Assembly (NCBI GenBank): GCA_036495095.1
Contig: DASXNK010000196.1
Span: forward strand, 11,472 to 75,471
DNA: 64,000 nt
Reading direction: 5' to 3'
Source of the DNA: Candidatus Dormiibacterota bacterium
Lineage (GTDB): Bacteria; Chloroflexota; Dormibacteria; Aeolococcales; Aeolococcaceae
Position numbers and translations under genes: made by a program. Below the pieces are notes generated by a model that saw only the letters and a program-made list of their open reading frames with translations, was not told the origin of the DNA and made no database searches. Below, one piece after another: positions 1-60,772 of this stretch; the stretch's first letter is position 1; every line of letters starts with the position of its first letter.

Positions 1-1008
1 TACGACCACCAGACGGTGAAGCTGAACGGCGTGACCGTGGGGCAGGTCGACGACCTCAGCCCCAACTACGCGGCCCGCGCGGTGGACGTCAATCTCGGGA
101 TCACCCCGGACCACGCGCCGCTCCACCGCGGGGCGCGGTTCAGCGTCCACTCCTCGGGGCTGTTCGCCGAGCAGTACGTGAAGATCGTCGACGGGCCCGC
201 CGGCGCCCCGGCGCTTCCCGACGGCGCGGCGATCCCGGTCAGCGAGACCATACCTGCGGTCGGCATCGACACCGTGGTCGACACCCTCGACGCCACCACG
301 CGGGCGGAGATCCGCACCCTGGTCACCCAGGCGAGGACCGGACTCGACGGGCAGTCGGCGGCCGACCTCAACGCCAGCCTCGGCGCCCTCCACCAGGCGG
401 TCGAGGCGCTCGATCCCGCGGTCACCGCCTTCTCGCAGCGCACCGGCGCGATCGACTCGATGATCAGCGACTACGACGCCCTGGGCACCAAGGTCGCCAG
501 CGACCGGGCCGCGCTCACCCGGACGCTCCCGCAGCTGGAGCAGGCCTTCGCGACCCTGGACACCCACCGGGACGAGGTCAGCCAGGCGCTGCAGACCGCG
601 GCGTCGACGATGGTCACGGCGAGCACCGTGGTGACCCAGCGGGTGCCCGAGCTGCGCAGCACCTTCGTCGAGCTGCCGGGGATGCTCCGCGTCGTCGACT
701 CGATGCTCGGGGAGCTCAACCCGCTGCTCGCCCGCATCGAACCGGCGGCTCCGCAGATCCGGCAGCTGCTGGTCGAGCTGCAGCGCAGCTTCGGCGACAG
801 CGACCAGTTCGGCAGCTACCTGCGCGTGCTGCCGCAGTTCGGCGCCGGGTCGATCGAGGAGGGCGTGCCCGGGCAGCGCTTCCCCGATCCCGGCTTCCCG
901 CCGTCGACGAGCCCTCCGTCCGCGCCGCCCGGCGCGTCCCACTCGGCGGCCCCGGCGCCGGGCGCGCGCGATCGCAACGCCGACGCCTGGAAGGAGCTGT
1001 TCAAGTGA
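1..1008 (+). CDS. Mce (mammalian cell entry) family protein; 5' end lies outside the window. Pro-rich C-terminal tail.
   Basis: Reading frame is open from base 1. The N-proximal region resembles the MlaD/Mce domain (VTVGQVDDLSP... Y-VKIVDG). Coiled-coil middle region and a Pro/Ala/Ser-rich C-tail are typical of actinobacterial Mce proteins. The stop overlaps the next mce gene start (GTGA at 1005). Confidence 0.7.
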   Translation, partial: YDHQTVKLNGVTVGQVDDLSPNYAARAVDVNLGITPDHAPLHRGARFSVHSSGLFAEQYVKIVDGPAGAPALPDGAAIPVSETIPAVGIDTVVDTLDATTRAEIRTLVTQARTGLDGQSAADLNASLGALHQAVEALDPAVTAFSQRTGAIDSMISDYDALGTKVASDRAALTRTLPQLEQAFATLDTHRDEVSQALQTAASTMVTASTVVTQRVPELRSTFVELPGMLRVVDSMLGELNPLLARIEPAAPQIRQLLVELQRSFGDSDQFGSYLRVLPQFGAGSIEEGVPGQRFPDPGFPPSTSPPSAPPGASHSAAPAPGARDRNADAWKELFK

Positions 1009-2219
1009 GCACCACACCCACCGGGACCGGGCCCAGGATCAAGACCACGCTGTACCCCGTCCTCCTCACCCGGGTGCATCCCCTCATCGCCGGGACGGTC
1101 GGCCTGGTGGTCATCTCCTTCATCGTCTATCTCGTCTTCGCCGTCACCGCGGTCCAGGGCAATCCCTTCGTCCACAAGTACACGGTGCACGGGCGGTTCT
1201 CGAACGTCGTCGGGCTGAGCAAGAACGACTTCGTCACCGTCAAGGGGGTGCGCGTCGGCCGCGTCAGCGACATCGAGCAGGCGGGGCCGCTGGCGGACGT
1301 CAGCCTCGCCTTCGACCACATCCGCCTCCACGATGACGCGAGCGCGATCGTCCGCCCGCGCAACCTGGTCGGCGAGACCTGGCTGGAGGTGAACCCGGGC
1401 TCGACCTCCCGGCCCGAGCTGCCCGACGGCGCGGTGCTCCGGGTCCAGCAGACGGTGAGCCCCGTGCAGCTCGACGAGGTTCTGAAAACCCTGAACCCGG
1501 AGGTGCGCACCGCGCTCGCCGGCTTCCTCCGGGAGACCGGCACCGGGCTCCGCGGACGGGGCGAGGACCTCAGCATGCTGGTGCGCCAGAGCGAGTCGAC
1601 GCTGCCGTCGACGGCGGACACATTCGCGGCCTTCAACGCGCCCCAGCTCGACGACCTGATCGCCACCCTCAACACCGACGCGGCCACCCTCGCGGCGCGC
1701 TCCGGCCAGCTGACCAGCCTGGTCGTGAACGGCAACAGCCTCCTCGGCGCGCTCGCCGGTGACACCCGGAACATCCAGTCCGCCATCGAGCACGCGGACG
1801 TCGCCCTGGGCCGGAGCCACGCGGTGCTCCAGGACCGCACCCAGGGGCTCGGCAACACCATCGCCGGGCTGGACTCGGCGGCCAGCAGCATCGGCACGCT
1901 GGTCGACCACTCGCGGCCGATCGCGGACGCGGTCACCCCCCAGCTGCCGGCGCTGATGGCCTTCATCGGCGAGCTCCAGTCGGCCACGGGGACGTCCGAC
2001 CTCAACGGCTACTTCATGCGGCTGATCGTCTCCGTCGGAGCCGGCAGCCTCGCCGACCCCGGCTACCAGGGCGTGCCCGGCATCCCCGGTCCTCGGGTGC
2101 AGCGAGCACCGGCCGGCGGGGCGAGCGCGCCGTCACCGCGGCCGCAGCCGGCCCCGTCCGGCCCCGAGCTGGCCCCGAGCATGTCGGGGCTGATGGACCT
2201 GGTGTACGGAGGCCGATAG
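1005..2219 (+). CDS. Mce family protein (N-terminal TM helix, Mce/MlaD domain, Pro-rich tail)
   Basis: N-terminal hydrophobic helix (LIAGTVGLVVISFIVYLVFAV), then an MlaD-like segment (VHGRFSNVVGLSKNDFVTVKGVRVGRVSDIE). The 4-nt overlap with the upstream gene and high GC3 support coding. Confidence 0.75.
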   Translation: MSTTPTGTGPRIKTTLYPVLLTRVHPLIAGTVGLVVISFIVYLVFAVTAVQGNPFVHKYTVHGRFSNVVGLSKNDFVTVKGVRVGRVSDIEQAGPLADVSLAFDHIRLHDDASAIVRPRNLVGETWLEVNPGSTSRPELPDGAVLRVQQTVSPVQLDEVLKTLNPEVRTALAGFLRETGTGLRGRGEDLSMLVRQSESTLPSTADTFAAFNAPQLDDLIATLNTDAATLAARSGQLTSLVVNGNSLLGALAGDTRNIQSAIEHADVALGRSHAVLQDRTQGLGNTIAGLDSAASSIGTLVDHSRPIADAVTPQLPALMAFIGELQSATGTSDLNGYFMRLIVSVGAGSLADPGYQGVPGIPGPRVQRAPAGGASAPSPRPQPAPSGPELAPSMSGLMDLVYGGR

Positions 2220-2220
2220 C

Positions 2221-3354
2221 GTGACCCTTCATCCCCGCCTCTACCGATCCCTGTGCATCGGGGCGGGCCTCGGCGTCTTCGTGGTCGCCGTGATCGCCAT
2301 CACCGAGGTCTTCGTGGCCGCGCTCGGGCTGCACGTCGTGCCCCCGATCAGGGCGCCCTACAAGATCTCCGCGGACTTCCCCGACGCCCTCGGCGTGCGC
2401 GTCGGCCAGCAGGTGATGGAGAACGGCGCGGTGGTCGGCCAGGTCTCGGGCGTCGAGGTCCAGGACCGTCACGCCCATGTGGACATGGAGTTCGACAGCG
2501 GCAGGGGGCCGATCCACGACACCGCCTCCGCGCAGATCCTCCCCACCAGCCAGGTCGGGCATCCGGTCATCGAGATCGACGACCCCGGCTACGGCAACGA
2601 CCTGCTCAGCGACCGCACCCTGCCGCTGGCACGCAACCACATCCCCGTCTACGTCGACGACGTGGTCTCGGCGCTGAACGGCGACGACCGCACCGGGCTG
2701 CAGACCATCATGCGCGAGCTGGGCACCGCGAGCACGGGCCGCGGGCAGGACATCCGCGCCGTGGCCTCCGACACCCGGGCCTTCCTCGCCGCGCTCACGC
2801 CGATCTCGCAGCAGCTCTCCACCGACAGCGCGCACATCGCCGGCATCCTCGACCACAGCCACGCGGTGATGGGGCAGCTCGCCCAGTCGAACATGGACGC
2901 CCTGGTCGGCGAGCTCGGCCGTCTCGGCGGGACCGTCGCGGCCCAGGAGCCCCACCTCGGTGGCACCCTGCGCGCGGCCAGCGCCGACCTCGCCACCGTC
3001 CGCGACATGCTGCAGGGGAACGAGGACAGCGCTCTGCGGGCGCTCACCGGCCTCCCGCCGGCGATCGCCGCGGTCGAGAGGACGGTCGCGGACTTCACGC
3101 CGCTGCTCGAGAGGGCCCTGGTCCCCAACCAGGCGGACATCGTCCAGCTCATCACCGAGCTGCAGCAGAGCTTCGCGCGCACCGGGTCGGACGGGCAGAA
3201 CTTCCTGAAGGTCGCGGTCGCCGGCAACAACATCCGCAGCTTCCTGGGCGGCACCGGCCACGGGCCGGGGGGCTTCGGGTCCGGCTCCGGCGCGGCGGCG
3301 CCGGCACCGCCCGCGAGCCCCGACACCCTGCTGTCCATCCTGTTCGGAGGCTGA
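2221..3354 (+). CDS. Mce family protein
   Basis: GTG start one base after the previous stop. TM helix, then an MlaD-like domain (PYKISADFPDALGVRVGQQVMENGAVVGQVSGVEV). Same architecture as the two preceding genes. Confidence 0.7.
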   Translation: MTLHPRLYRSLCIGAGLGVFVVAVIAITEVFVAALGLHVVPPIRAPYKISADFPDALGVRVGQQVMENGAVVGQVSGVEVQDRHAHVDMEFDSGRGPIHDTASAQILPTSQVGHPVIEIDDPGYGNDLLSDRTLPLARNHIPVYVDDVVSALNGDDRTGLQTIMRELGTASTGRGQDIRAVASDTRAFLAALTPISQQLSTDSAHIAGILDHSHAVMGQLAQSNMDALVGELGRLGGTVAAQEPHLGGTLRAASADLATVRDMLQGNEDSALRALTGLPPAIAAVERTVADFTPLLERALVPNQADIVQLITELQQSFARTGSDGQNFLKVAVAGNNIRSFLGGTGHGPGGFGSGSGAAAPAPPASPDTLLSILFGG

Positions 3355-3355
3355 G

Positions 3356-3871
3356 GTGACCCGCCCCGCGACCGCGGCCGGCCCCCCCTCCGTCGAGTCG
3401 CTGCGGTGGACGCTGGCGCTGTGGGGCACGGCGACCTACCCGTTCGCGGCACTGGTCATCGCGCTCACCGTCGGCCACGGCAAGCAGCTGCTCCGGGCCC
3501 TCGCCTACGTGCTGGCGACACCCGAGCCGGTCTCCGTGTGCATGGGCTACGGGGTCGGCTACCTCATCGTCCAGTACCGCGTCCGCACCCCCAACCCGAG
3601 CTTCATGCAGTCACAGGTCTTCGCGGCCTGCGCCTTCGCGGGGATGGTCGTCACGGTTGGCGTCCTCCACCTGCTCGTGCCCGGCGGCACCCCGCTGGCG
3701 GTGTCCTTCGGCCTGGTCATCGCGCTCAAGATCGCGGCCGGATCGGTGGCCGCAGCCCTCCTCTATCCCTGGCTCTCCCACCGGCGCTCGCCGTCGCAGC
3801 GCTACCGGCCGCTCGCATCGCGGCGTGTCACCGGCGACGCCCCGGCGGACGTCCCCGACCCGCACCACTGA
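3356..3871 (+). CDS. Mce-associated integral membrane protein (hypothetical)
   Basis: About 4 predicted TM helices. Sits immediately after the mce genes (GTG start 1 nt after the stop). No recognisable catalytic motif. Confidence 0.5.
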   Translation: MTRPATAAGPPSVESLRWTLALWGTATYPFAALVIALTVGHGKQLLRALAYVLATPEPVSVCMGYGVGYLIVQYRVRTPNPSFMQSQVFAACAFAGMVVTVGVLHLLVPGGTPLAVSFGLVIALKIAAGSVAAALLYPWLSHRRSPSQRYRPLASRRVTGDAPADVPDPHH

Positions 3872-3880
3872 GGATCAGGA

Positions 3881-5521
3881 ATGGCCGCTCCATCGAGCCG
3901 TCGACGCAGCATCACCCGCACCCACGAGCGCATCTCCCAGCTGGGCTGGGAGGCGACCTACGAGACGCCGGTGGCGAAGCATCCCACCCGCTATCGCTTC
4001 CCGCACCGGGCCAAGGACCCGATGAAGCACATCATGCGCGAGTACCTCCCGATGGAGCTGGAGAAGGACGAGCGCGTCTACGGCGGCCACGACGCGGCGG
4101 TGCGCGCCGAGATGCCGGCGAAGGCCGAGCTCCGGTGGCAGGAGATCCTCAAGCCCTTCGTGTCGGTGACCAACTTCGCGGAGATCGGCGCGGGACGGTG
4201 CATGTCGATGCTCATCGACGCGGTGCCGAACAACGAGCTCCGCAACGGCTACCACGTGCAGTTCGTCGACGAGGTGCGGCACACCGGCATGCAGATGTCG
4301 CTGGCGCGCTGGTACGCGAAGCACTCCCCGGATCCCGCCGGCTGGAACATCGCCAACTCGGCGCTGCCGAGCACCCCGCTGACGTCGGCCGGCCTGAACA
4401 TGCTCTCGCACTTCATGGTCGGCGACCCCATCCAGTGCGCCTTCACGCTCCAGGTCGTCGCCGAGACCGCGTTCACCAACGTGGCCTTCGTCGCGCTGCC
4501 CGACGTGGCGGCGCGCAACGGCGACTTCACGCTGCCCACCACCTACCTGTCGGTGCAGTCGGACGAGGCGCGCCACATCTCGAACGGCTACGCCACCCTG
4601 CTCACCGTCCTCCAGGACGACCACAACGCACCGCTGATCGAGCGCGACCTTCAGCAGGCGTGGTGGATCAACCACGCGTTCCTCGACACCTTCAGCGGCG
4701 GGATCATGGAGTACTTCTCGCGGTCGCGAACCGACCACGAGTCGTACCTCGACAAGTGGGACCGGTGGGTGCGGGACGACTGGTATCGCGCCTACGTCCT
4801 CAAGCTCGGCAAGCTGGGGCTGAACCTGTCGCCCGAGATCTTCGAGAACGCCCGCGAGCGGATCGTCAAGGGCCTCGTCCACAAGAACGTCATGCTGGCG
4901 TTCGCCGCCTGGCCGCTGCACTTCTGGCGCTTCGACCCGCTCGACGAGCGCGACTTCGAGTGGCTCGAGAACCGGTACCCGGGCTGGTACGACGACTACG
5001 GCGCCTTCTGGGAGATGTACCGGGAGGCGAAAAACCCCCAGGACCGCACCCTGCTGCTGTCGTTCCTCAACCTGTCCCCCCCCTTCTGCTGGACCTGCAT
5101 GGTGCCCTGCGTGCTCGACGAGGACATGTGCCATCGCGTGGTGGATGAGCGCACCCGCTTCTACTGCTCGAAGTGGTGCTCGTGGCTCGACGAGTCCAAC
5201 CCCGGCCGCTACACCGGCGACCGCAACTTCTTCGATCGCTACCACGGCTGGGAGCTCTCGGAGGTGGTCCGGGACCTGGGCTTCGTGCGCGCCGACGGGA
5301 AGACGCTGGTCGGCCAGCCCCACCTCGAGGACGAGAACCGCTGGACCCTCGACGACATCCGGGCATGTGAGCTCGAGATCAGGAGCCCGAACATCCGCGT
5401 GGCTCAGGAGATGGGCCTGCCCAGCGGCGACTGGCACGCCGCCGCGATGGCGGATCGCGCCATCGGGGCCGGTGCGCGCCCCGCGGTGCGGCCGTCCGCC
5501 AACGGAACGGCGCACGCCTGA
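3881..5521 (+). CDS. prmA: Soluble diiron monooxygenase hydroxylase alpha (large) subunit, propane/2-propanol monooxygenase type (PrmA/MimA-like)
   Basis: 546 aa. Contains the diiron carboxylate ligand motif (FVDEVRHTGMQM and E...E-x2-H repeats). Length and order (alpha, reductase, beta, coupling) match group 5/6 SDIMO prmABCD operons. Confidence 0.8.
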   Translation: MAAPSSRRRSITRTHERISQLGWEATYETPVAKHPTRYRFPHRAKDPMKHIMREYLPMELEKDERVYGGHDAAVRAEMPAKAELRWQEILKPFVSVTNFAEIGAGRCMSMLIDAVPNNELRNGYHVQFVDEVRHTGMQMSLARWYAKHSPDPAGWNIANSALPSTPLTSAGLNMLSHFMVGDPIQCAFTLQVVAETAFTNVAFVALPDVAARNGDFTLPTTYLSVQSDEARHISNGYATLLTVLQDDHNAPLIERDLQQAWWINHAFLDTFSGGIMEYFSRSRTDHESYLDKWDRWVRDDWYRAYVLKLGKLGLNLSPEIFENARERIVKGLVHKNVMLAFAAWPLHFWRFDPLDERDFEWLENRYPGWYDDYGAFWEMYREAKNPQDRTLLLSFLNLSPPFCWTCMVPCVLDEDMCHRVVDERTRFYCSKWCSWLDESNPGRYTGDRNFFDRYHGWELSEVVRDLGFVRADGKTLVGQPHLEDENRWTLDDIRACELEIRSPNIRVAQEMGLPSGDWHAAAMADRAIGAGARPAVRPSANGTAHA

Positions 5522-5533
5522 CCGGGAGCGGGA

Positions 5534-6599
5534 CATGTCCCCACGCGTCGTGTTCGAGCCGATCGCCGAGGAGATCGAGTGTGAGGAGGACGAGTCGGTC
5601 CTCGACGCCGCCTTCCGTCAGGGACTCAACCTCGCGCACGGCTGCCGTGAGGGCCAGTGCTCGGCGTGCAAGTCGTATCTGCTCCAGGGCGAGGTGTCAC
5701 TGAGGCGGTACTCGAGCTTCGCCCTCTCCGACTCGGAGGAGGCGAACGGCTACACGCTGCTCTGCCGGGCGATGCCCGACGAGGACCTCGTCGTCGAGCT
5801 CCTCCACTACGACCCCGACAACTACCGCCTCGAGAACCCGATCCGCGACGTCCGCACCACGGTCGTCGCGGTCGAGCCGCTCACCCACGACATCCGCCGC
5901 CTCCTCCTCCGGATCGTCGAGCCGGAGGACTTCGCCTTCGTCCCCGGCCAGTACGTCGACGTCCACGTTCCCGGAACCGAGCTGCGGCGCGCGTTCTCCA
6001 TGGCCAACGTGCCCGGCGATGGGCACCTCGAGCTCATCGTCAAGAGGTACCCGGGCGGCCGCTTCTCGGGCATGCTCGACGGCGAGCTCGCGACCGGCGA
6101 CGAGCTGAGCGTCACCGGCCCGTACGGCGCCTTCCACCTGCGTCGCGGCGAGCGGCCGATCCTCCTCGTCGCGGGCGGCTCGGGGATGGCTCCGGTGCTC
6201 GCACTGCTCCGGCAGCTCGCCTCCCAGGGCAGCACCCGCACCACCCGCTTCCTCTATGGGGCGCGCACCCGCCCCGACCTGTTCCACCTCGACCTGGTCG
6301 AGGAGCTGGGCGCGTCGCTCGTCGACTTCCGCTTCACGCCGGTGCTCTCCCACGCGTCCCCGGAGGACGCGTGGGAGGGCGAGCAGGGGCTTGTGCACGA
6401 GGCGGTCGGGCGCTGCCTGGCCTCCGGCGAGCTGGAGGACCCGGAGATCTACATGTGCGGCCCCCCGCCGATGATCGACGCGGTCACCGAGCTCGTCGTC
6501 GACGGCCACGGGATCGCCCCGGACCGCATCCACTTCGACAGCTTCACGACCTCGGCCGACGCCGGGGCCGCCACCGGCAGTGCGCTGCCGCAGCGATGA
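5534..6599 (+). CDS. prmB: Monooxygenase NADH oxidoreductase: N-terminal plant-type [2Fe-2S] ferredoxin plus FAD/NAD-binding ferredoxin-NADP reductase domain
   Basis: ATG at 5534 gives MSPRVVFEPIAEEIECEED... with the 2Fe-2S Cys cluster (C-x4-C-x2-C: GCREGQCSACK), then RxFS (RRAFSMAN) and GGSGMAP flavin/NAD motifs. The longer 5145 ORF in the track is an upstream extension with no support. Confidence 0.8.
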
Positions 6600-6613
6600 G
6601 AGGAGGCACCGAC

Positions 6614-7693
6614 GTGTCCACCCCGGCTCCCCCCGTGAAGTCCCTCGGCGACGGCATCCCGGCACCGGGCGGTGGCGGCGAGGAGGGACGCACCTTCCAG
6701 TGGTTCACCCCCCGCAGGCGCCGCGCCAGCCTGTACGAGGACGTCACGATCGACACCCAGCCGTCGATCCACCGCCACATCACGCGGGGCTGGCCGCTGA
6801 GCTTCGAGGACGGTCGGGGCATGTGGTGGGAGAGCTCCACCGCGCTCCGCTGCGTCGACTGGTACGACTTCCGCGATCCCGGCGAGACCTGGGAGCGCCC
6901 CTACTACCAGCAGGGCGCCGGCTACGAGCGGCAGATCGAGGGGGCCCTCGCCGGCGCCGCCGCCGACCACCTCTTCGAGGACTTCAGCCCGGAGTGGGTC
7001 GACTTCCTGCGCGCCCACCTGCAGGTGCCGGCGTTCGTCGAGCATGGCCTCTGGCTGGCCTCGGCGAGCCTGGCCCGCGACTGCCTCTCCGACAGCCTGA
7101 CTCACTGCCTCGCCCTCCACGCCGCGATGAAGCAGCGCTCCGCCCAGGCGGTGGTGCTCTACGCGATGGACCTGGAGCCGCACCTCGGCGAGTTCCCGAT
7201 CGAGACCGCCCGCGAGCGCTGGCTGAAGGACGAGGCCTGGCAGCCCTCCCGCCGCTACGTGGAGCGGCTCGCCAACGTCCGGGACTGGGGAGAGCTGATC
7301 GTCGCCGCCAACGCCTGCTTCGAGCCCACCGTCGTGACCCTGCTCCGCCGCGAGCTGGGGATCCGGGCGGCCACCGCCCACGGCGACACCGTCACCCCGG
7401 TGGTCGCCCGCGCCGCCACCACGGAGTGGCAGTGGACCCGTGCCTGGACCGTCGAGTTCCTGCGCTTCGTCACCGAGGACCGGGAGCACGGGGAGCACAA
7501 CCGCGAACTGGTCGAGGGCTGGGTCGCCCGGTGGATGCCGGACGCGACCGCGGCGGCGCTCGCCCTGGGCGCGATCGCGGGCGGCCTGTCCAACACGGTG
7601 CCCTTCGAATCCTCGCTGCGGAGCCTCCGCCAGACCGTCGCCGAGGTCTTCACCGAGGCCGGGCTTGCCGGCCTGGCGCCGGCGGCCGGATGA
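6614..7693 (+). CDS. prmC: Soluble diiron monooxygenase hydroxylase beta (small) subunit
   Basis: GTG start at 6614, preceded by AGGAGG at 6601-6606. About 360 aa, lacks metal-ligand E-x2-H pairs, consistent with a beta subunit. Position follows the reductase as in prmABCD. The annotated 5657 start is an artefactual extension. Confidence 0.7.
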   Translation: MSTPAPPVKSLGDGIPAPGGGGEEGRTFQWFTPRRRRASLYEDVTIDTQPSIHRHITRGWPLSFEDGRGMWWESSTALRCVDWYDFRDPGETWERPYYQQGAGYERQIEGALAGAAADHLFEDFSPEWVDFLRAHLQVPAFVEHGLWLASASLARDCLSDSLTHCLALHAAMKQRSAQAVVLYAMDLEPHLGEFPIETARERWLKDEAWQPSRRYVERLANVRDWGELIVAANACFEPTVVTLLRRELGIRAATAHGDTVTPVVARAATTEWQWTRAWTVEFLRFVTEDREHGEHNRELVEGWVARWMPDATAAALALGAIAGGLSNTVPFESSLRSLRQTVAEVFTEAGLAGLAPAAG

Positions 7694-8004
7694 GCGACGC
7701 AGACGAGCGGTTCGACTTCGTCGGCATCGTGATGTCGAAGAGCGCCGAGGGCGATGCGGTGGTCTCCGCGCTGCGGAAGAAGGAGGGCGTCCAGGTCATC
7801 GAGCAGCCGTCCTTCTGGGACGTGCGCGCCCGGGACCGGCTCGTCATCGACTACGACGAGGTGAGCGAGGAGCTGGGCTTCGAGATCGACGGCTACGCGA
7901 TCCAGCACGAGATGTCCACCCACTACGGGCGGATGATCGCCACCGACGACGCGCTGATGCTGTTCTCCGATCCGACCGAGGTGATGGAGCACCTCATGGG
8001 ATGA
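7690..8004 (+). CDS. prmD: Monooxygenase coupling/effector protein (MmoB/DmpM family)
   Basis: 104-aa acidic protein (MSDADERFDFVGIVMSKSAEGDAVVSALRKKEGVQVIEQPSFWDV...), the size and composition typical of SDIMO regulatory proteins. ATG overlaps the prmC stop. Confidence 0.7.
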   Translation: MSDADERFDFVGIVMSKSAEGDAVVSALRKKEGVQVIEQPSFWDVRARDRLVIDYDEVSEELGFEIDGYAIQHEMSTHYGRMIATDDALMLFSDPTEVMEHLMG

Positions 8005-9230
8005 GGGCGGGGGCCTCCACCGGCCTCAGGCACAGACCGCGGCCCATGGGCGCCGCCTCGCTCCTCGGCCCCGCGATGGTGGCGGCGATCGCCTACGTGG
8101 ACCCGGGGAACATCGCCACCACCGCGGTGGCGGGCTCGACGCGCGGGTTCCAATTGGCCGGCGTCGTCCTCGGCGCCAGCCTGCTGGGCATCCCCGTCCA
8201 GGCGCTCGCGGCCAAGGTCGCCCTCGCCACCGGCGGAGACCTCGCCGGCGTCTGCGGCCGTGAGCTCCCCGGCATCGCGCGGGTGCTGCTCTGGGCGGTC
8301 GCCGAGGTCATGGTCATGGCCACCGACGTCGCCGAGGTGGTCGGCGCCAGCCTCGGCCTCTCCCTGCTGCTCGGCATCGGCATGCTCCAGGCCGGCGCGC
8401 TCACCGCCACGGCGAGCGTCGCGCTGCTGGCGCTGCGACGCCATCGCCCCCGCTGGTTCGAGGCGGCGATGGGGATGACGATCGTCATGCTCGGCGCCCT
8501 GTCGGTGCAGCAGCTGCTCCTCGCCGGTCACCCCGCCACCCAGGCGATGCCGGTCGGTGGCGGCGCGGCGGTGCCCGGCCTCGCCTTCCTCGCCGCGGGG
8601 ATCATCGGCGCCACGGTGATGCCGCACGCCATCTTCCTGCAGAGCGCCCTGATCACCGCCCGGGCGCGCCACCGCCCACCGCACTCGCCCGGGGCCGCGT
8701 ACCGGCGGGCGTGGGTCGATACCGGGATGGCGCTGGGCGCGGCCGGGCTGGTCAACGTGCTCATGCTGGTGGTCGCCGCCGTCGCCCTCCACGGCAGCGG
8801 CGCGCCGGTGGCCGGCCTGCCCGAGTTCTGGCAGCGCCTGCGCGACCTCGCCGGCCCGATGGCGGGACATCTCTTCGCCGTCGCGCTGGTCGTCTCCGGG
8901 CTCGCGTCGGCCTCGGTCGGCACGCTCGCCGGTGAGGTCGTCATGGCGGGGCTGCTTCGGCGCCGGGTGCGCCCCATGGCGCGCCGGCTGGTGACCCTCC
9001 TGCCGTCGCTCGCAGTGCTCGCCGCCGGCGTTCCGGCGACGCCCGCGCTCCTCGGCAGCCAGGTGGTGCTCAGCCTCACGCTGCCGTGTGCGCTGGTCCC
9101 GCTGATCTGGGTGACGCACAGCCGGCGCCTGATGGGCGACCTCGCCAACCGCCGCGTCACCACCGTCGCGGCCGCGGCGGGGAGCGCCGTGGTGGTCTCT
9201 GTCGCCGTGTGGGCGGTCCTGGGGGGATGA
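8001..9230 (+). CDS. mntH: Nramp family divalent metal (Mn2+/Fe2+) : proton symporter
   Basis: Nramp signature DPGN (AIAYVDPGNIATT). Multiple TM helices with conserved MPH (TVMPHAIFLQSAL). ATG at 8001 overlaps the prmD stop (ATGA), indicating translational coupling with the monooxygenase operon. Confidence 0.8.
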   Translation: MRAGASTGLRHRPRPMGAASLLGPAMVAAIAYVDPGNIATTAVAGSTRGFQLAGVVLGASLLGIPVQALAAKVALATGGDLAGVCGRELPGIARVLLWAVAEVMVMATDVAEVVGASLGLSLLLGIGMLQAGALTATASVALLALRRHRPRWFEAAMGMTIVMLGALSVQQLLLAGHPATQAMPVGGGAAVPGLAFLAAGIIGATVMPHAIFLQSALITARARHRPPHSPGAAYRRAWVDTGMALGAAGLVNVLMLVVAAVALHGSGAPVAGLPEFWQRLRDLAGPMAGHLFAVALVVSGLASASVGTLAGEVVMAGLLRRRVRPMARRLVTLLPSLAVLAAGVPATPALLGSQVVLSLTLPCALVPLIWVTHSRRLMGDLANRRVTTVAAAAGSAVVVSVAVWAVLGG

Positions 9231-9356
9231 CTCGCCGTGGCGTCACCTCAACCGGCGGGATCGCGGGTGAAAAGGAGGGTGGGTACGCGGCGGCGCCGTC
9301 GCTACCATCGTCACCGTGGCTGCCCCGGACAGGATCGAAGCACGTGGGGGACGTCT

Positions 9357-9860
9357 GTGATGAGGATCGGGATACCTGCATCCAGGCTGCTCGGCTGGAT
9401 CTGCGTCGGCGTCGGTGTGGTCATGGCCGCGATGCCGTTCGCCGGTCCGCTCGTGGGGGTGCCCTTCGACGGGCTGCCGGCCCTGGCCTGGAGCGTGCAC
9501 CGGGGCCTGCTGCACGTGCTCCCCGGTGAGCTCACCATCGCCCTGGGTGGGCTGCTGCTGTGGCGTCCGCCGTCGCTGGGACGCCGCTCGTCGGCGGCGG
9601 TGGCCGCGGGCCTGGTCGCGGTGGGCATCTGGGACACGGCCGGTCCCTGGATCTACGGCCTGTTCACGCCCCACGCCCGCCAGTCCGGGCTGATGTTCCT
9701 CGGCATCCCGCAGTTCGGCGGCTTCTCCTCCGCCCACCAGATGGTGGTGAAGGCGTTCTGCCACTGGCTGCCGGGCACGGTCACCCTCGGCCTGGCGGTG
9801 GCCTGGATGGCGTACCTGGTCACGTCGCGGGTCGCGAGGCGTGGCGTCGCCACCTCCTGA
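9357..9860 (+). CDS. Hypothetical integral membrane protein
   Basis: GTG/ATG at 9357/9360 gives VMRIGIPASRLLGWICVGVGVVMAAMPFAG... with about 4 hydrophobic helices. Coding-like GC3. Confidence 0.45.
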   Translation: MMRIGIPASRLLGWICVGVGVVMAAMPFAGPLVGVPFDGLPALAWSVHRGLLHVLPGELTIALGGLLLWRPPSLGRRSSAAVAAGLVAVGIWDTAGPWIYGLFTPHARQSGLMFLGIPQFGGFSSAHQMVVKAFCHWLPGTVTLGLAVAWMAYLVTSRVARRGVATS

Positions 9861-10365
9861 CGGCTCGGGGATTCACGCCGTCGCGGCGGCATCCCCGGAC
9901 GACCCGGGGTCGATGCGCCGTGCGTCCCTGCACGCGCTGAGCCTCACCGGCCTCTGCTGGCCGTTCGCGAGCCTGGTGGTCGCTGCGGGCGTGGTCGCCA
10001 CCGGCCGGTGGGACGGCGGATACGTGATCGCCCTGGCCCGCTTCATGGCGGACGAGGCGGGGGTGGGAAGCTGCTATGTCATGGTCGCGCTCGCCGGTGC
10101 GGTCGGCTACGCCCTGGCGCAGCAGCGCCACCCGGTGCTGCGCCAGGGGTTCGTGGAGTCGCAGATCTTCGCGGCCGTCATCTTCGGCGCGGCCACCGGT
10201 GCGGCCCTGCTCGCCCGCGCGGCGGTCACCGCCGCCGGGCTCGGGCTCGACTCTCCGCGATCGCTGCTGGTGCTCCTGCCCGTCAAGGTCGCGGCCGCGG
10301 CCGCTGCCGCGGCGTACGTCTACCCGCTCTACCTCCGCTACCGGTCCTCCGACCGTCGACCCTGA
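9841..10365 (+). CDS. Hypothetical integral membrane protein (start uncertain, possibly the internal Met near 9910)
   Basis: Hydrophobic helices (LCWPFASLVVAAGVVATG..., VMVALAGAVGYALA..., IFAAVIFGAATGAALLA...). No known motif. Confidence 0.4.
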   Translation: MASPPPDGSGIHAVAAASPDDPGSMRRASLHALSLTGLCWPFASLVVAAGVVATGRWDGGYVIALARFMADEAGVGSCYVMVALAGAVGYALAQQRHPVLRQGFVESQIFAAVIFGAATGAALLARAAVTAAGLGLDSPRSLLVLLPVKVAAAAAAAAYVYPLYLRYRSSDRRP

Positions 10366-10498
10366 GCGGGCCGCTCCCGACGGTACCTGAATCTCCAGCA
10401 GCGGGCGCGACCGGTGGCCATTCACGGTTGTCATCGTGTCATCAGCGGCGCTTTTCGCCGGCAGCGCCCATCGTCCCCGCACATGAATCGATCGGTTC

Positions 10499-12133
10499 TT
10501 GTCATCGCCCCCGATGCCGTCCCGGGCGAGTGGCGCGTGTAGGATCGATTCCGACGTGATCGAGGAGTGTCGTCCGCGACCGAGCGATGCAGGGGCCACC
10601 GTGCGCGGAGACCGGCCGCCATCGCAGTTCACCGGGCTCCCGCCGCGCTGGGTGAAGGTGGTGGACCAGACGCGATGCATCGGATGCCACGCCTGCACCA
10701 CCGCCTGCAAGTCGGAGAACGCGGTGCCGCTCTCCGTGACCCGAACCTACGTGAAGAGCGTCGACGTGGGGCTCTTCCCACAGGTCCGGCGCAGCTTCCA
10801 GGTGACCCGATGCAATCAGTGCGACGACGCGCCGTGCGTCGCCGCCTGCCCGACCGCGGCGATGTTCCAACGCGCTGACGGCATCGTCGACTTCGACAAG
10901 TCCGCGTGCATCGGCTGCAAGGCGTGCATGGCCGCGTGTCCGTATGACGCCATCTTCATCAACCCCGAGGATCACTCCGCGGAGAAGTGCAACCTCTGCG
11001 CTCACCGTCTGGACGTCGGCCTGGAGCCGGCCTGCGTGGTGGTGTGTCCCGTCGAGGCCATCCTCGTCGGCGACATCAACGATCCCGTCTCACGGGTGTC
11101 GGAGATCGTGCACCGCGACGCCGTCGCCGTGCGGCGGCCGGAGAAGGGCACCCGGCCCAAGCTCTTCTACAGGGGCGCCCACCAGGCGACCCTCGACCCG
11201 ATCGCGGCCCGCCGCCCCAGCGGGGGCATCTTCGCCTGGAGCGAGCAGAGGGGTCCGGTGGTGTCGGGCCATCCAGGCGGTCACAACTCGTCGGCGTCGG
11301 CGGTTCTGTCGTACGACATCGGGCATGCGCTCCCCTGGGGCTGGCGCGTCAGCCTGTACACCTGGACCAAGGGTGTCGCCGCCGGCGCCTACCTGCTGCC
11401 ACTCCTGCTGGTGTGGAGTGGCCGGCTCGCCGACTCCAGCCCGCTCTGGCGCTGGGCCGCCCCGATCGTGAGCGGGATGTTCCTCGCCATCACCGGGGTG
11501 CTGCTGATCTGGGACCTCAAGCATCCGCGGCGCTTCCACTACATCTTCCTGCGCCCGCAGTGGCGCAGCTGGCTGGTGCGCGGATCGTTCGTGATCGCCG
11601 CCTACAGCCTCGTCCTCGGGCTCGACGCAGTCGCCGGGATCGCGGGCAGCACGGCGATGGAGCGCACGCTCGCGATCGCCGGGGCGCCGCTGGCGGCGAT
11701 GACCGCGATCTACACCGCGTACCTGTTCGCACAGGCGAGGGCTCGAGACCTGTGGCAGAGCCCGCTGCTCCCGCCGCATCTCCTCGTGCAGGCGCTGCTC
11801 GTCGGCGCAGCCGTGCTGCTGCCGGTGGCCGCCATCTGGGACGGGACGGCGGTGACCCCGCTGAGCTGGGTGCTCGCCGGCACCGCGGTCCTCCATCTGC
11901 TGCTCGTGGGCGGCGAGACGACGCTGAGCCACGGCACCGCCCACGCTCACCTCGCCGTCCACGAGATGACCCGGGGCCGCCAGGCGCGCTTCTTCTGGAG
12001 CGGGGTCGGTCTCATCGCCATCGCCCTGCTGGCGCCGGTCCTCGGCGTCGCCGCCGTCCCCTTCGCGGCGCTCGGGCTGCTCGCCCACGAGCACGCATTC
12101 GTCGAGGCCGGGCAGTCGGTTCCGCTCGCGTGA
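10499..12133 (+). CDS. Fused 4Fe-4S ferredoxin subunit (DmsB/NrfC/PsrB-like, four Cys clusters) and NrfD/PsrC-like polytopic membrane anchor
   Basis: N-terminal half carries four CxxCxxCxxxCP-type clusters (CIGCHACTTACK, CNQCDDAPCVAACP, CIGCKACMAACP, CNLCAHRLDVGLEPACVVVCP). C-terminal half has about 8 TM helices. Start could instead be the GTG at 10553 or 10603. Confidence 0.7.
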   Translation: MSSPPMPSRASGACRIDSDVIEECRPRPSDAGATVRGDRPPSQFTGLPPRWVKVVDQTRCIGCHACTTACKSENAVPLSVTRTYVKSVDVGLFPQVRRSFQVTRCNQCDDAPCVAACPTAAMFQRADGIVDFDKSACIGCKACMAACPYDAIFINPEDHSAEKCNLCAHRLDVGLEPACVVVCPVEAILVGDINDPVSRVSEIVHRDAVAVRRPEKGTRPKLFYRGAHQATLDPIAARRPSGGIFAWSEQRGPVVSGHPGGHNSSASAVLSYDIGHALPWGWRVSLYTWTKGVAAGAYLLPLLLVWSGRLADSSPLWRWAAPIVSGMFLAITGVLLIWDLKHPRRFHYIFLRPQWRSWLVRGSFVIAAYSLVLGLDAVAGIAGSTAMERTLAIAGAPLAAMTAIYTAYLFAQARARDLWQSPLLPPHLLVQALLVGAAVLLPVAAIWDGTAVTPLSWVLAGTAVLHLLLVGGETTLSHGTAHAHLAVHEMTRGRQARFFWSGVGLIAIALLAPVLGVAAVPFAALGLLAHEHAFVEAGQSVPLA

Positions 12134-12134
12134 G

Positions 12135-15077
12135 GTGACCCGTATGGATCTGCGTCGCATCGCCGCGCGTGTCAGCGCCGCCCGACAGGACGTCGAGGCC
12201 CGGGGTGAGACCTTCTATCCCGGGCCCAGCCGTGTCCACCTCGCCGCGTACCCGCCCAGGGAGCGGTGGGACAACTGGGTGGAGCTGGAGTCGCGCGCCT
12301 GGCCGCGGCGCGAGGAGCACCGGTACATGCTGGTGCCGACCACCTGCTTCAACTGCGAATCGGCCTGCGGGCTGCTCGCCTACGTCGATCGCGACACCCT
12401 GCAGGTGCGCAAGTTCGAGGGCAACCCCGAGCATCCGGGATCGCGCGGCCGCAACTGCGCCAAGGGTCCCGCCACCCTCAACCAGGTCACCGATCCCGAC
12501 CGCATCCTCCAGCCGCTGCGGCGGGCCGGGGCGCGGGGGGAGGGGCGGTGGGAGCAGGTCGGCTGGGACGAGGTGCTCGACGACATCGCCGGCCGGATCC
12601 GGACCGCGATCCTCGACGGCCGCAACAACGAGATCATGTACCACATCGGCCGCCCCGGTGAGGACGGCTACACCGAGCGCGTCCTCGCGGCCTGGGGCGT
12701 CGACGGTCACAACTCGCACACCAACATCTGCAGCAGCGGCGGCCGGGCGGGCTACCACTACTGGATGGGCATCGACCGCCCCAGCCCCGACCACGCCAAC
12801 GCCCGCGTCATCCTGCTGATCAGCGCCCATCTCGAGGCGGGGCACTACTTCAACCCCCATGCGCAGCGGATCATGGAGGCGAAGGAGCGGGGTGCGAAGC
12901 TGGTCGTCGTCGACGTCCGTCTCTCCAACACGGCGACCCATGCCGACCACTGGCTGGCACCGCATCCGGGAAGCGAGGCGGCGATGCTGCTCGCCATCGC
13001 AAACCACATCATCCAGACGGGTGCCTACGACCGCGAGTTCGTGCGCCGCTGGTGGAACTGGCAGGAGTTCCTGACCCATGAGCACCCCGAGCTCGAGCCC
13101 ACGTTCGAGATCTTCGAGCAGCGGCTGCGCCTGCTCTACGCGGACCATACCCTCGAGTCCGCCGCCGCGGAGTCCGGGCTCGACGCCGGCGTGCTCCGGC
13201 GGGTGGCGGAGCTGGTCGCCGGCGCGGGCACCCGGCTGTCCACCCACACCTGGCGATCGGCGACGGCGGGCAACCTGGGCGGCTGGCAGGTGTCACGCTG
13301 CCTCTTCCTGCTCAACGCGCTGCTCGGTGCGGTCGCCACCGAGGGCGGAACATATCCCAACACCTGGAACAAGTTCGTCCCCCGTCCGATCCACATGCCC
13401 CCCCACCCGCAGGGGTGGAACCAACTGACCTGGCCGGAGGAATTCCCGCTCTCCAACAACGAGATGTCCTTCCTGTTGCCGCAGTTCCTCAAGGACGGCC
13501 GGGGGACCCTCGACGTCTACTTCTCGCGCGTCTACAACCCGGTGTGGACGAACCCGGACGGCTTCAGCTGGATGGAGGTCCTCACCGACGAGCGCCTGGT
13601 CGGTCTCCACGTCGCGCTCACTCCGACCTGGAACGAGACCGCCTTCCTCGCCGACTACGTCCTGCCGATGGGCCATGCGTCCGAACGGCACGACCTCCAC
13701 TCCTACGAGACCCACGACGCCCGCTGGCTGGGCTTCCGCCAGCCGGTGCTGCGGGCCGCGCGCGAGCGGCTTGGCGAGACCGTGAGCGACACCCGGGAGG
13801 TCAACCCGGGTGGGGTCTGGGAGGAGAACGAGTTCCTGATCGAGCTGAGCTGGCGGATCGACCCGGACGGCACCATGGGCATCCGCCGGCACTTCGAGTC
13901 GCGGCAGCACCCCGGGCAGAGGCTGGGCGTCGACGAGTACTACGCACACATCTTCGAGACGTCGGTCCCCGGCCTCCCCGAGAGGGCGGCGGCCGAGGGA
14001 CGCACGCCGCTGCAGTACATGCGCCAGTACGGTGCCTTCGAGGTCGAGCGCGGCATCGGACCGCTGCACGAGCAGGAGGTGCCCGCGGCGGAGCTGGCCG
14101 ACCTGCGCGTCTCGGACGGTGGCCGGGTCTACACCGGGGCGCCGAAGCCGGAGGCGGTGAACCTGGCGCCGGAGGGCGTTCCCGACGGTGACGGCGAGGG
14201 CCGGCGTCCGGTCGGGGTGCGGATCGACGGCCGCATCCTGCGGGGCTTCCCCACACCGAGCGGGCGGCTCGAGTTCTACTCCCGAACCCTGGCCGACTGG
14301 GGCTGGCCGGAGTACGCGATCCCCACGTACATCCGGAGCCACGTCCACCCGGGCCGGCTCGCACCCGACCAGGTGGTGCTGCTGTCCACCTTCCGCCTCC
14401 CGACCCAGATCCACACCCGCAGCGCCAACGCCAAGTGGCTCGACGAGATCGCCCACACCAACCCGCTCTGGCTGCACCCCGTCGACGGCGACCGGCTCGG
14501 GGGCATCGCGACCGGGGACCTGGTGCGGGTGGAGACCGAGATCGGGTATTTCGTTCTCAAGGCGTGGGTCACCGAGGGAATCCGGCCGGGCGTGGTTGCC
14601 TGCAGCCATCACATGGGCCGGTGGAAGGTGCAGGAACAGGGCGTGCGGGCGATGATGGCGACGGTCTCCCTCGACCACGAGGGCTCGAGCTGGGCGATGC
14701 GGCGCGTCGCCGGGGTCGGCCCCTACCGGTCGAGTGACCCGGACACCCGTCGCATCTGGTGGACGGACGTCGGCGTCCATCAGAACCTCACCTTCCCCGT
14801 GCACCCGGACCCGATCTCGGGGATGCACTGCTGGCACCAGGCTGTCCGGGTCCGCCGTGCCGAGGCCGGCGACCGGTACGGCGACATCAGCGTCGACACC
14901 GCCAGGTCACGGGACGTCTACCGTCGCTGGATGCAGGGCACCCGGGCGGCGTCCGGCCATTCGCCCGACGGCACCCGCCGGCCCCACTGGCTGATCCGGC
15001 CACTGCGGCCCGGACGTGACGGCTACCTCCTCCCCGACGCCGCCCGGCGCCGGCCGGTGCCGGACGGGGCGCCGTAG
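12135..15077 (+). CDS. Molybdopterin (bis-MGD) oxidoreductase catalytic subunit, DMSO-reductase superfamily (Psr/Ttr/arsenate-reductase-like branch)
   Basis: 980 aa. N-terminal 4Fe-4S motif (CFNCESACGL...CAKG) and multiple MopB-like segments. GTG start 1 nt after the upstream stop. No obvious twin-arginine signal peptide (RRIAARVSAA lacks a hydrophobic core). Confidence 0.75.
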   Translation: MTRMDLRRIAARVSAARQDVEARGETFYPGPSRVHLAAYPPRERWDNWVELESRAWPRREEHRYMLVPTTCFNCESACGLLAYVDRDTLQVRKFEGNPEHPGSRGRNCAKGPATLNQVTDPDRILQPLRRAGARGEGRWEQVGWDEVLDDIAGRIRTAILDGRNNEIMYHIGRPGEDGYTERVLAAWGVDGHNSHTNICSSGGRAGYHYWMGIDRPSPDHANARVILLISAHLEAGHYFNPHAQRIMEAKERGAKLVVVDVRLSNTATHADHWLAPHPGSEAAMLLAIANHIIQTGAYDREFVRRWWNWQEFLTHEHPELEPTFEIFEQRLRLLYADHTLESAAAESGLDAGVLRRVAELVAGAGTRLSTHTWRSATAGNLGGWQVSRCLFLLNALLGAVATEGGTYPNTWNKFVPRPIHMPPHPQGWNQLTWPEEFPLSNNEMSFLLPQFLKDGRGTLDVYFSRVYNPVWTNPDGFSWMEVLTDERLVGLHVALTPTWNETAFLADYVLPMGHASERHDLHSYETHDARWLGFRQPVLRAARERLGETVSDTREVNPGGVWEENEFLIELSWRIDPDGTMGIRRHFESRQHPGQRLGVDEYYAHIFETSVPGLPERAAAEGRTPLQYMRQYGAFEVERGIGPLHEQEVPAAELADLRVSDGGRVYTGAPKPEAVNLAPEGVPDGDGEGRRPVGVRIDGRILRGFPTPSGRLEFYSRTLADWGWPEYAIPTYIRSHVHPGRLAPDQVVLLSTFRLPTQIHTRSANAKWLDEIAHTNPLWLHPVDGDRLGGIATGDLVRVETEIGYFVLKAWVTEGIRPGVVACSHHMGRWKVQEQGVRAMMATVSLDHEGSSWAMRRVAGVGPYRSSDPDTRRIWWTDVGVHQNLTFPVHPDPISGMHCWHQAVRVRRAEAGDRYGDISVDTARSRDVYRRWMQGTRAASGHSPDGTRRPHWLIRPLRPGRDGYLLPDAARRRPVPDGAP

Positions 15078-15078
15078 C

Positions 15079-19083: not shown

Positions 19084-19116
19084 GATCGGACCCCAACCTC
19101 CGTGTCCACCCCAGCG

Positions 19117-19390
19117 TCAGCGGCCGGAGAAGCGGTGGATGGTGGTGATGAGTTCGTCGAGGGCTTCCTCCCCTCTGCCCCCGCCGACGTCATCCACGAC
19201 GCAGTGCCCGATGTGCTCCCGAAGCAGGATGAACCCGATCTTCTCGAGCCCAGCGATCGAGGCACTGAGCTGGGTGAGGACCTCCGGGCAGTAGCGCTCG
19301 TCCTCCACCATCTGCGAGATGCCGCGAATCTGACCCTCGACCCGCCTGAAGCGGGCCAGCATCTCCGCCTTCGAGGCCTGGTACGAGCCC
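19117..19390 (-). CDS. csoR: CsoR/RcnR-family copper-sensing transcriptional repressor
   Basis: GTG at 19390 follows the RBS AAGGAGAAGG. About 91 aa: ...EMLARFRRVEGQIRGISQMVEDERYCPEVLTQLSASIAGLEKIGFILLREHIGHCV... Contains the conserved C-H-C ligand set (YCPEV, GHCV). The upstream 5' extension in the track is not supported. Confidence 0.8.
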
Positions 19391-19440
19391 CTCCGCACCG
19401 TGGTGGCCACAACCTTCTCCTTGGTGGGCCGGGTGTGAAT

Positions 19441-45856: not shown

Positions 45857-45860
45857 GGGC

Positions 45861-60719: not shown

Positions 60720-60772
60720 AGGACGCACTGTAGTCCAGTGAGTTCTGTTACGCAACCCTATATGATGACCCC

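Follow-up and report, generated by a model that had tools for sequence, protein, structure and literature searches.

Here we study a soluble diiron monooxygenase (SDIMO) operon that ends in the gene for an Nramp-type metal importer. The operon occupies positions 3881-9230 of a 64-kb window (the whole stretch of DNA that was analysed, to which all coordinates refer; 72% G+C) taken from contig DASXNK010000196.1. The list of open reading frames (ORFs) and a Pfam scan, on which our gene calls are based, give five genes on the forward (+) strand, in the order hydroxylase alpha subunit, reductase, hydroxylase beta subunit, coupling protein and Nramp, with the content and order that the original prediction had claimed (Table 1), and no further SDIMO-type ORF is found in this interval. 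The monooxygenase core consists of four components only (alpha, beta, coupling protein and an FAD/[2Fe-2S] reductase), with neither a gamma subunit nor a Rieske ferredoxin. Our central observation is that an Nramp gene stands at the 3' end of Group-5 SDIMO clusters in at least four lineages: the link between the two is real and recurrent.

The five genes form part of a longer array (16-9230) in which all genes lie on one strand with junctions of -4 to +14 nt. ATGA overlaps are present at 7690-7693 (beta/coupling) and 8001-8004 (coupling/Nramp), and 4-nt overlaps are ordinary here (1005-1008, 7690-7693 and possibly 6596-6599). For the beta gene there are two start candidates, the ATG at 6596 used by NCBI, which would overlap the reductase stop as ATGA, and a GTG at 6614 with AGGAGG before it. 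Upstream of the operon stand three Mce-family genes and a gene for a 171-aa protein, the stop of which lies 9 nt before the alpha ATG; the adjacency stated in the original prediction is thus as described, with a measured gap of 9 nt in place of its 10 bp. Because merely 9 nt precede alpha, its expression would have to start inside the mce genes or 5' of them. Both junctions of interest recur in independent data: a Logan contig (L185, SRR11835593) is 99.9% identical to window 1201-4098, covering Mce, the 171-aa ORF and alpha and carrying the exact protein HEY2705925.1, and a JGI contig (L186, 3300036845) is 99.97% identical to 4771-8744, covering alpha through Nramp. Since these two independent assemblies of the same strain reproduce them, the Mce-side and Nramp-side junctions are genuine and not assembly artefacts.

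Table 1. Features of the 64-kb window: the five-gene operon, its flanking genes and features elsewhere.
Feature	Position	Strand	Evidence
SDIMO hydroxylase alpha, predicted Group 5, Thm-sister clade, HEY2705927.1	3881-5521	+	PF02332, E 9e-47
NADH:acceptor reductase, [2Fe-2S] + FAD + NAD domains	5535-6599	+	Pfam Fer2, FAD_binding_6, NAD_binding_1
SDIMO hydroxylase beta	6596 or 6614-7693	+	PF02332, E 1e-49
Coupling/effector protein, MmoB/DmpM family	7690-8004	+	PF02406 (MmoB_DmpM), E 2e-19
Nramp/MntH divalent-metal importer, HEY2705931.1	8001 or 8046-9230	+	PF01566, E 1.6e-75
Mce-family (MlaD-domain) protein, 5' end cut by window edge	16-1008	+	Pfam MlaD
Mce-family protein, HEY2705924.1, NCBI 'MlaD family protein'	1005-2219	+	Pfam MlaD, E 5e-13
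Mce-family protein, HEY2705925.1	2221-3354	+	Pfam MlaD, E 5e-10
171-aa protein, several hydrophobic stretches, HEY2705926.1	3356-3871	+	ORF, sequence
166-aa membrane protein, family unassigned	9360-9860	+	ORF; Pfam without match
150-aa membrane protein, HEY2705933.1	9913-10365 (also 9841-10365)	+	ORF; Pfam without match
Operon with molybdopterin oxidoreductase	10499-15933	+	
Copper-type P1B ATPase with HMA domain, adjacent CsoR-family metal-sensing repressor	16609-19584	-	
Ser/Thr kinase-AAA-PAS-GGDEF-EAL protein, 1973 aa	27763-33684		
c-di-GMP-I-GGC riboswitch aptamer	33835-33909	+	Rfam RF03167, 73.5 bits, E 1.6e-15
228-aa ORF	33945-34631		no Pfam match
Second PAS-GGDEF-EAL protein	37691-39907		
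Glycine/sarcosine/betaine reductase component B-like protein, DUF5940/ACP_syn_III-like protein	43167-47291	+	PF09338, E 8.5e-91 (component B-like protein)
Second molybdopterin oxidoreductase	58380-60755	-	

SDIMOs of Groups 5 and 6 break down propane, acetone, tetrahydrofuran (THF), 1,4-dioxane and nitrosamines. Obtaining them in active form by expression is notoriously difficult; a GroEL-like chaperonin is known to help, as are accessory genes that are little understood. We placed the window alpha among reference alphas from annotated plasmids: DmpN (Group 1), TmoA (Group 2), a Rhodococcus smoX-type protein (Group 3), EtnC of JS614 and NBB4 (Group 4), ThmA of R. ruber YYL, Methylocella PrmA and a Rhodococcus PrmA-like protein (Group 5), and the proteins of NBB4 and PH-06 (Group 6). 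In a neighbour-joining tree with 300 bootstraps and few references per group (about one or two), the window clade pairs with the Thm clade at 100%, and this pair joins the Prm clade, that is, Group 5, at 99%. The identity of the window alpha is 53% to ThmA, 42-46% to PrmA-like proteins, 43% to Group 6, 40-41% to Group 4, 36% to Group 3 and 21% to Groups 1 and 2. The tree and the gene order agree on Group 5: the order alpha-reductase-beta-coupling is that of thmADBC of R. ruber YYL and of Methylocella prm, and it is unlike that of Group 6, Group 4 and Group 3 clusters. On this evidence we assign the alpha to SDIMO Group 5 as a predicted sister of the tetrahydrofuran/dioxane enzyme ThmA, and not of PrmA/MimA.

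The label 'prmABCD-type' given to this operon by the original prediction is therefore right for the architecture and the group (99% bootstrap) and wrong for the nearest characterised enzyme, which is ThmA at 53% and not PrmA/MimA at 42-46%. Orthology to the Prm/Mim subfamily is not seen in the coupling protein either: its nearest NCBIfam model is MimD, at 84.8 bits against an equivalog cut-off of 150. For the reductase the nearest NCBIfam model is MmoC, with a score under the cut-off. All six diiron ligands of the alpha are kept (E101, E131, H134, E195, E229 and H232, in two E...ExxH motifs), and they are invariant across a 22-sequence alignment of alphas from Groups 1-6. A PDB search returns MmoX as the best solved relative (1e-84) and no Group-5 hydroxylase among the solved structures. 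The SDIMO core itself is an ordinary Group-5 one; it is the setting that is unusual.

The fifth gene encodes what looks like a complete metal transporter. The PF01566 domain spans residues 38-384 of 409, the NCBIfam equivalog Nramp_1 is passed at 139.7 bits (cut-off 50), and the nearest model of that database, 'Mn(2+) uptake NRAMP transporter MntH', gives 343.6 bits and does not reach its cut-off of 430. Among solved structures the protein is closest to DraNramp (Deinococcus MntH, E 3e-68). The metal-site motifs AYVDPGNIAT and GATVMPH align with it, with the Asp and Asn of DPGN and the Ala and Met of ATVMPH kept; so are the residues aligned with the proton network of transmembrane helices (TM) 3 and 9, and the second His of TM6 is a Gln. 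The NRMT structure 7qia matches at no better than E 4e-4. Judged from these residues the protein is predicted to be of the canonical transition-metal (Mn2+/Fe2+) type, set apart from the Mg-transporting NRMTs. Its closest homologue (P0121) is 83% identical, otherwise there is nothing above about 50% in 5.8 billion clusters, and in the Nramp tree it sits on a long branch with no supported sister, with which the sub-cut-off MntH score is consistent.

P0121 is encoded on a metagenomic contig (L081) that is colinear with window 7564-9435 at 84.7% nucleotide identity, from the 3' end of beta through the coupling gene, the ATGA and Nramp to the start of the small downstream membrane ORF; the conserved N-terminus of this 166-aa ORF there too lies 3' of Nramp. 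Because dN/dS between the window and L081 is 0.35 for Nramp, the gene appears to be under purifying selection and hence functional, though less constrained than the coupling gene (0.11). The same contig bears on the start codon. NCBI annotates Nramp from the ATG at 8046, and the JGI call on L186 is at the equivalent position. L081 has no start codon at the equivalent of 8046, and the gene there could begin only at the ATG of the ATGA or at a GTG; the latter lies six residues ahead of the Asp that binds metal and would cost the protein TM1a. The N-termini encoded by the window and L081 share MRA-ASTGL...LLGPA, and what separates them is a 6-nt indel that keeps the frame, together with several synonymous substitutions. 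Because L081 lacks a start at the 8046 equivalent and keeps the ATGA and this shared N-terminus, we favour 8001 as the probable start. The coupling-Nramp gap is at most 41 nt on either start. The ATGA overlap at 8001-8004 in the original prediction is thus present as a tetranucleotide, but it is an overlap of two genes on one start and not on the one used by NCBI. About 7 kb from Nramp, the copper-type P1B ATPase and its CsoR-family neighbour are a second metal-homeostasis module.

An Nramp gene at the end of a Group-5 cluster recurs in four settings. The first is the window together with L081, its closest metagenomic relative, which has the same ATGA junction. The second is the L178-L183 lineage, a dozen JGI contigs with alphas (P0001/P0357) 84-85% identical to that of the window, in which the order is a divergent aldehyde dehydrogenase, alpha, reductase, beta, coupling protein, a 90-nt spacer, Nramp, a GAF histidine kinase and a response regulator. 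Window 3869-8004 and L178 9989-14123 are 81.7% identical in nucleotides; the homology begins 12 nt ahead of the alpha ATG and ends precisely with the stop codon of the coupling gene, and the genes that flank this homologous stretch are unrelated on both sides; the four genes (the ABCD cassette) appear to act as a sharply bounded unit. The Nramp of this lineage has the usual second His and is 43% identical in amino acids to the window Nramp and 64-67% to typical actinobacterial Nramps. To judge from these identities, the same cassette carries two non-orthologous Nramps at the same position. As a separate observation on this lineage, Nramp on L179 (1-11136) is followed by a second copy (98.9%) of the block of GAF kinase, response regulator, orf132 and aldehyde dehydrogenase that is seen before alpha in L178 (5873-15886), a repeat with a period of ~9.7 kb, as would arise if the whole module were duplicated in tandem or if direct repeats of 3.9 kb lay on both sides of it.

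The third setting is found in Prm/Mim-type clusters of metagenome-assembled genomes (MAGs) labelled Streptosporangiaceae, with Nramp after GroEL. In L098 and L104 (~87% identical to each other in nucleotides; two of the 80 metagenomic Nramp loci), ABCD is followed on one strand by amidohydrolase, DUF59, zinc-dependent alcohol dehydrogenase (Zn-ADH), GroEL and Nramp, and homologues of this type of Nramp form a large clade in such MAGs. In L175 and L176 (two of the four contexts read), MimR and the full cluster are followed by Nramp after 33-34 nt, and across all four loci the gaps are 33-51 nt. The alpha of this type is 78% identical to the Rhodococcus PrmA-like protein and 43% to that of the window. 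The fourth setting is the thm cluster on plasmid pYYL1.1 of R. ruber YYL, where an unannotated Nramp remnant lies on the same strand (L187 9177-9500), ~250 nt after aldH; it comprises the N-terminal ~100 codons, 62-70% identical to actinobacterial Nramps, and is cut by a Tn3 transposase. The association of Nramp and monooxygenase that the original prediction had noted in a single locus is thus borne out in four lineages. A metagenome scan with the single Nramp gives 221 pattern matches and 0 relatives, and one with a two-sequence Nramp alignment gives only Nramps of 40-47% identity, with an SDIMO at two loci. In the literature, an Nramp downstream of the dxm/thm cluster of P. dioxanivorans EUR-1 was remarked on in passing in 2025 (PMC12542641). 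The thm/dxm-Nramp linkage can already be seen in public annotation, which takes away some of its novelty. Beyond this one remark we find nothing that interprets a link between an SDIMO (or propane or THF monooxygenase) and Nramp or mntH, and nothing on Dormibacterota SDIMOs.

What could a metal importer do at the end of a monooxygenase operon? The reading we prefer, at roughly even confidence, is that co-expression of Nramp supplies freshly synthesised hydroxylase and reductase with metal. With Nramp joined directly to the 3' end of a four-component Group-5 operon, the five genes would be transcribed together, and the spacing makes read-through from the mce genes probable. By family resemblance, the reductase would hand electrons from NADH to an alpha2-beta2 hydroxylase tuned by the coupling protein, and the hydroxylase would activate O2 and oxidise a small substrate, which by analogy to Thm, Prm and Mim we guess to be an ether, a short alkane or a ketone. 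Nramp, again by family, would import Mn2+/Fe2+ with protons and so raise cytoplasmic Fe2+/Mn2+ when the enzyme is made, such that the diiron hydroxylase and the [2Fe-2S] reductase become metallated; its part would be akin to that of the maturation genes DUF59 and GroEL of Mim-type clusters. The original prediction had suggested metal supply for the diiron centre: the linkage on which it was built recurs, and iron supply is its putative role. Regulatory signals are of little help here. Scans for sigma-70 promoters and intrinsic terminators in window 1-12500 and L178 give nothing above shuffled sequences and are uninformative at 72% GC; a search of the window for IdeR boxes gives no match and is likewise uninformative (the MntR motif was not searched); and with Rfam neither an Mn riboswitch nor any other element turns up near the operon in the window, L178, L176, L104 or L081, which is again uninformative.

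Several points weigh against metal supply. We took the 80 best genome-collection loci by alpha with 10-kb flanks (alphas 72-81% identical to that of the window, all from Thermoleophilia), and none has an Nramp within 10 kb (tblastn, E <= 1e-8). Nor does one occur in those plasmid clusters of Rhodococcus, Mycobacterium, Methylocella and Nocardioides that were examined, and the plasmid collection holds no record of an intact Nramp close to an SDIMO. Because all 80 Thermoleophilia loci and the plasmid clusters examined are without one, an Nramp is not generally needed by Group-5 clusters. The linkage was tallied without a background frequency of chance adjacency. At L174 (7154-11299) and L177 (7137-11311), amidohydrolase, DUF59 and Zn-ADH end 18-25 nt before an Nramp without ABCD and GroEL, and this block occupies the place of the L175/L176 cluster, next to the his operon; the partner of Nramp there may be the accessory genes, or Nramp may simply reside beside the his operon. 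Whether the coupling and Nramp genes overlap hinges on the start codon, with 8001 the likelier candidate and 8046 the one annotated by NCBI. Bacterial MntH, finally, is mainly an importer of Mn2+, which fits a diiron enzyme less obviously than an iron-specific system would.

This last point opens the way to a different role, one of several that are not all mutually exclusive with metal supply. Nramp could import Mn2+ as an antioxidant against H2O2 leaked by uncoupled SDIMO turnover and not to feed the diiron site at all, with the manganese acting in Mn-dependent superoxide dismutase (SOD), in Mn-metabolite complexes or in place of iron in mononuclear enzymes. The window Nramp is closest to the Mn-importing Deinococcus MntH and has the Met-containing site of canonical Mn2+/Fe2+ Nramps, its nearest NCBIfam model is the Mn(2+) uptake one, mntH is induced by peroxide in enterobacteria, and the recurrence in four lineages fits this role as well as it fits metal supply. 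However, in Pfam scans neither the operon nor its close surroundings contain an SOD, catalase or OxyR/PerR-type gene, and the Mim-type clusters place their Nramp among the maturation genes DUF59 and GroEL, which points to assembly. We regard the antioxidant role as unlikely, though the strongest of the alternatives. It is slightly less likely again that the adjacency has no function, with accessory genes travelling together on mobile or recombining islands and the tight spacing produced by deletion. The sharp homology edges of the ABCD cassette with different flanks in each lineage, the location of the thm cluster on a conjugative plasmid rich in transposases, the 9.7-kb repeated unit of the L178 lineage and the lack of an Nramp in most Group-5 clusters examined would all fit such an origin; yet two different Nramps stand at the same position after the same cassette, two more Group-5 subclades independently end in a same-strand Nramp, and the window Nramp appears to be under purifying selection with its junction kept in L081.

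A more radical variant is that some Group-5 hydroxylases need manganese, with a heterobinuclear Mn/Fe site and Nramp as a true fifth component. Mn/Fe sites are known in class Ic ribonucleotide reductases and in R2-like ligand-binding oxidases, and the textbook SDIMO site is Fe/Fe. We raise this analogy because an Mn2+-type importer has been recruited repeatedly and even replaced non-orthologously at the same position; we find no metal analysis of a Group-5 hydroxylase, and we hold the idea to be very improbable. If co-expression for metal supply is the right reading, a recurring importer at the end of the operon would mark metal supply as a limiting step; for bioremediation strains, and where the enzyme is expressed heterologously, co-expression of the Nramp under controlled Fe and Mn would then be a simple idea to apply. 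The homology edges further suggest that the cassette moves between soil taxa as a sharply bounded four-gene unit.

Now we consider the upstream side of the operon. MlaD scores above the Pfam threshold in all three Mce proteins, and the more specific models remain below their cut-offs, with 24-32 bits for Mce4_CUP1 and 83-130 bits for TIGR00996 (cut-off 140.5; 83 bits for ORF 16-1008 and 130 bits for ORF 1005-2219). In ORF 16-1008 the match is to MlaD profile positions 22-81 only, at residues 2-60, with Mce4_CUP1 sub-threshold. A Mce operon of the actinobacterial type has two YrbE permease genes, then six genes for Mce proteins (MlaD domain and helical C-terminal region), with Mas/Mam proteins after mceF and an MceG ATPase; the window covers three of the Mce genes and opens inside the first of them. 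The 171-aa ORF, which the original prediction called an Mce-associated membrane protein, has several hydrophobic, probably membrane-spanning stretches and matches no family in Pfam or NCBIfam, although no direct comparison with Mas/Mam sequences was made; it is not a recognised Mce-associated protein. HMMER finds ~3 real homologue clusters for it among 1.84 billion representatives. One homologue (context L184) adjoins an alpha/beta hydrolase, a context that is uninformative, and JGI names one member of the family 'predicted RND superfamily exporter protein'. The 171-aa ORF is paralogous to ORF 9913-10365 (34% over 101 aa, pairwise BLASTP E 3e-6). The block of ABCD, Nramp and the 166-aa ORF may therefore have been inserted between tandem paralogues that close the mce operon, an idea for which this 34% paralogy is the sole basis.

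The original prediction had joined the two sides into a dedicated uptake-and-oxidation island, in which Mce would import a hydrophobic substrate for the monooxygenase as one co-transcribed unit. The tight one-strand array (16-9230, junctions -4 to +14 nt) in which alpha has no regulatory region of its own (9 nt), the reality of the Mce-alpha junction in an independent assembly and the paralogue after the block, which could mean that the block is nested in the mce-operon tail, would all suit such a unit, and MCE family proteins have been remarked on in print near a Mycobacterium isoprene monooxygenase cluster. Conservation does not support it. Mce genes are absent within 10 kb from all 80 Thermoleophilia loci (tblastn, E <= 1e-8) and from every other Nramp-linked cluster, and the sister L178 lineage, with the same cassette, has the divergent aldehyde dehydrogenase upstream instead; the contigs of the L081 lineage (<= 3.8 kb) do not reach upstream of the cassette. 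Furthermore, the known Group-5 substrates (propane, acetone, THF, dioxane) are small and diffusible, whereas sterols and fatty acids are the cargo of those Mce systems that have been characterised, and the 171-aa ORF is tied to Mce by no recognised family and has a homologue beside an alpha/beta hydrolase. We consider the island improbable. Because the sister lineage and all 80 relatives are without Mce genes, the adjacency of these genes here is probably incidental: they would have come to lie next to the operon in this particular lineage and would not be dedicated to supplying it with substrate.

Elsewhere in the window, the 228-aa ORF begins 36 nt downstream of the c-di-GMP aptamer, and the 1973-aa GGDEF-EAL protein ends just before it. 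An intergenic stretch of lower GC precedes the separate operon at 10499-15933. Its products are a membrane protein (544 aa in the ORF list) in which a 4Fe-4S dicluster part is fused to an NrfD-like one, a molybdopterin oxidoreductase of 980 aa and a chaperone resembling TorD/NarJ. The betaine-reductase-type genes are unexpected beside an O2-dependent monooxygenase in one organism.

The closest sequence relatives of the operon lie in Thermoleophilia. The best protein matches to the alpha (72-84%) are named 'propane monooxygenase large subunit' and come from Solirubrobacterales, Conexibacter and Paraconexibacter; the Thm-sister clade is common in soil Thermoleophilia. These clusters resemble the window in the alpha (72-81% in the 80 loci), in the same ABCD core, the order of which is kept in all complete loci among the 80 (L054 is rearranged), and in having no GroEL near the four-gene core. 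They differ from it in lacking Nramp and Mce and in their surroundings, which in representative sequences (not Pfam scans) are a divergent PucR-like regulator at the 5' side, with thiolase, a short-chain dehydrogenase/reductase and MaoC further out, and at the 3' side a ~139-aa protein, a membrane protein, 2-oxoacid dehydrogenase E1/E2 and lipoyl synthase LipA; tblastn finds none of these neighbour genes in the 64-kb window. By exact sequence match the window belongs to a 103-kb contig of an NCBI TPA MAG (proteins HEY2705924-HEY2705933). The MAG carries the NCBI label Candidatus Dormibacteraeota, yet the 80 best alpha matches are all from Thermoleophilia (Actinomycetota). This conflict would point to transfer of the cassette between phyla or to a mis-binned contig. 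The G+C content at third codon positions (0.95-0.97 in the mce genes and alpha alike) bears no mark of recent transfer and does not decide between the two.

The absence of downstream amidohydrolase, alcohol dehydrogenase (ADH) and GroEL genes, a point of the original prediction, extends to the whole 64-kb window: tblastn with the proteins of L104 finds no homologue of amidohydrolase, DUF59, Zn-ADH or GroEL, and Pfam scans of the window ORFs find none of amidohydrolase, DUF59, ADH, GroEL or MimR, nor an alcohol or aldehyde dehydrogenase that would point to a pathway. Because the 80 close relatives are also without them, the missing Mim-type accessory genes are the norm of the clade and not a peculiarity of this locus.

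How does the operon compare with named systems? As a transporter, the window Nramp shares with DraNramp and bacterial MntH a full-length fold match and the metal-site and proton-network residues, and it differs in overall sequence (~40% identity) and in the Gln at the second TM6 His; it is also embedded in a monooxygenase operon, whereas MntH generally stands alone under MntR/Fur control. As a monooxygenase, the core shares gene order, component set and Group 5 (99%) with PrmABCD/MimABCD of Gordonia, Rhodococcus and Mycolicibacterium, and the Prm/Mim-type clusters of the Streptosporangiaceae-labelled MAGs likewise end in Nramp. Unlike the window, Prm/Mim systems have MimR, amidohydrolase, DUF59, ADH and the GroEL-like MimG, and they are set apart by the alpha (42-46%) and by the MimD cut-off that the window coupling protein does not reach. 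The nearest characterised system is ThmADBC/DxmADBC of Pseudonocardia and R. ruber YYL, with the same four components in the same order, the closest alpha (53%; sister clade at 100%) and a cluster that also ends in a same-strand Nramp, as a remnant in YYL and as reported in EUR-1 (PMC12542641). The thm cluster differs in its flanking aldehyde dehydrogenases, EthD, GntR regulator and YaaH transporter, none of which the window has, and its Nramp lies several genes downstream, whereas that of the window abuts the coupling gene. The thm cluster of YYL is on a plasmid; the window locus looks chromosomal, in a MAG labelled Dormibacteraeota.

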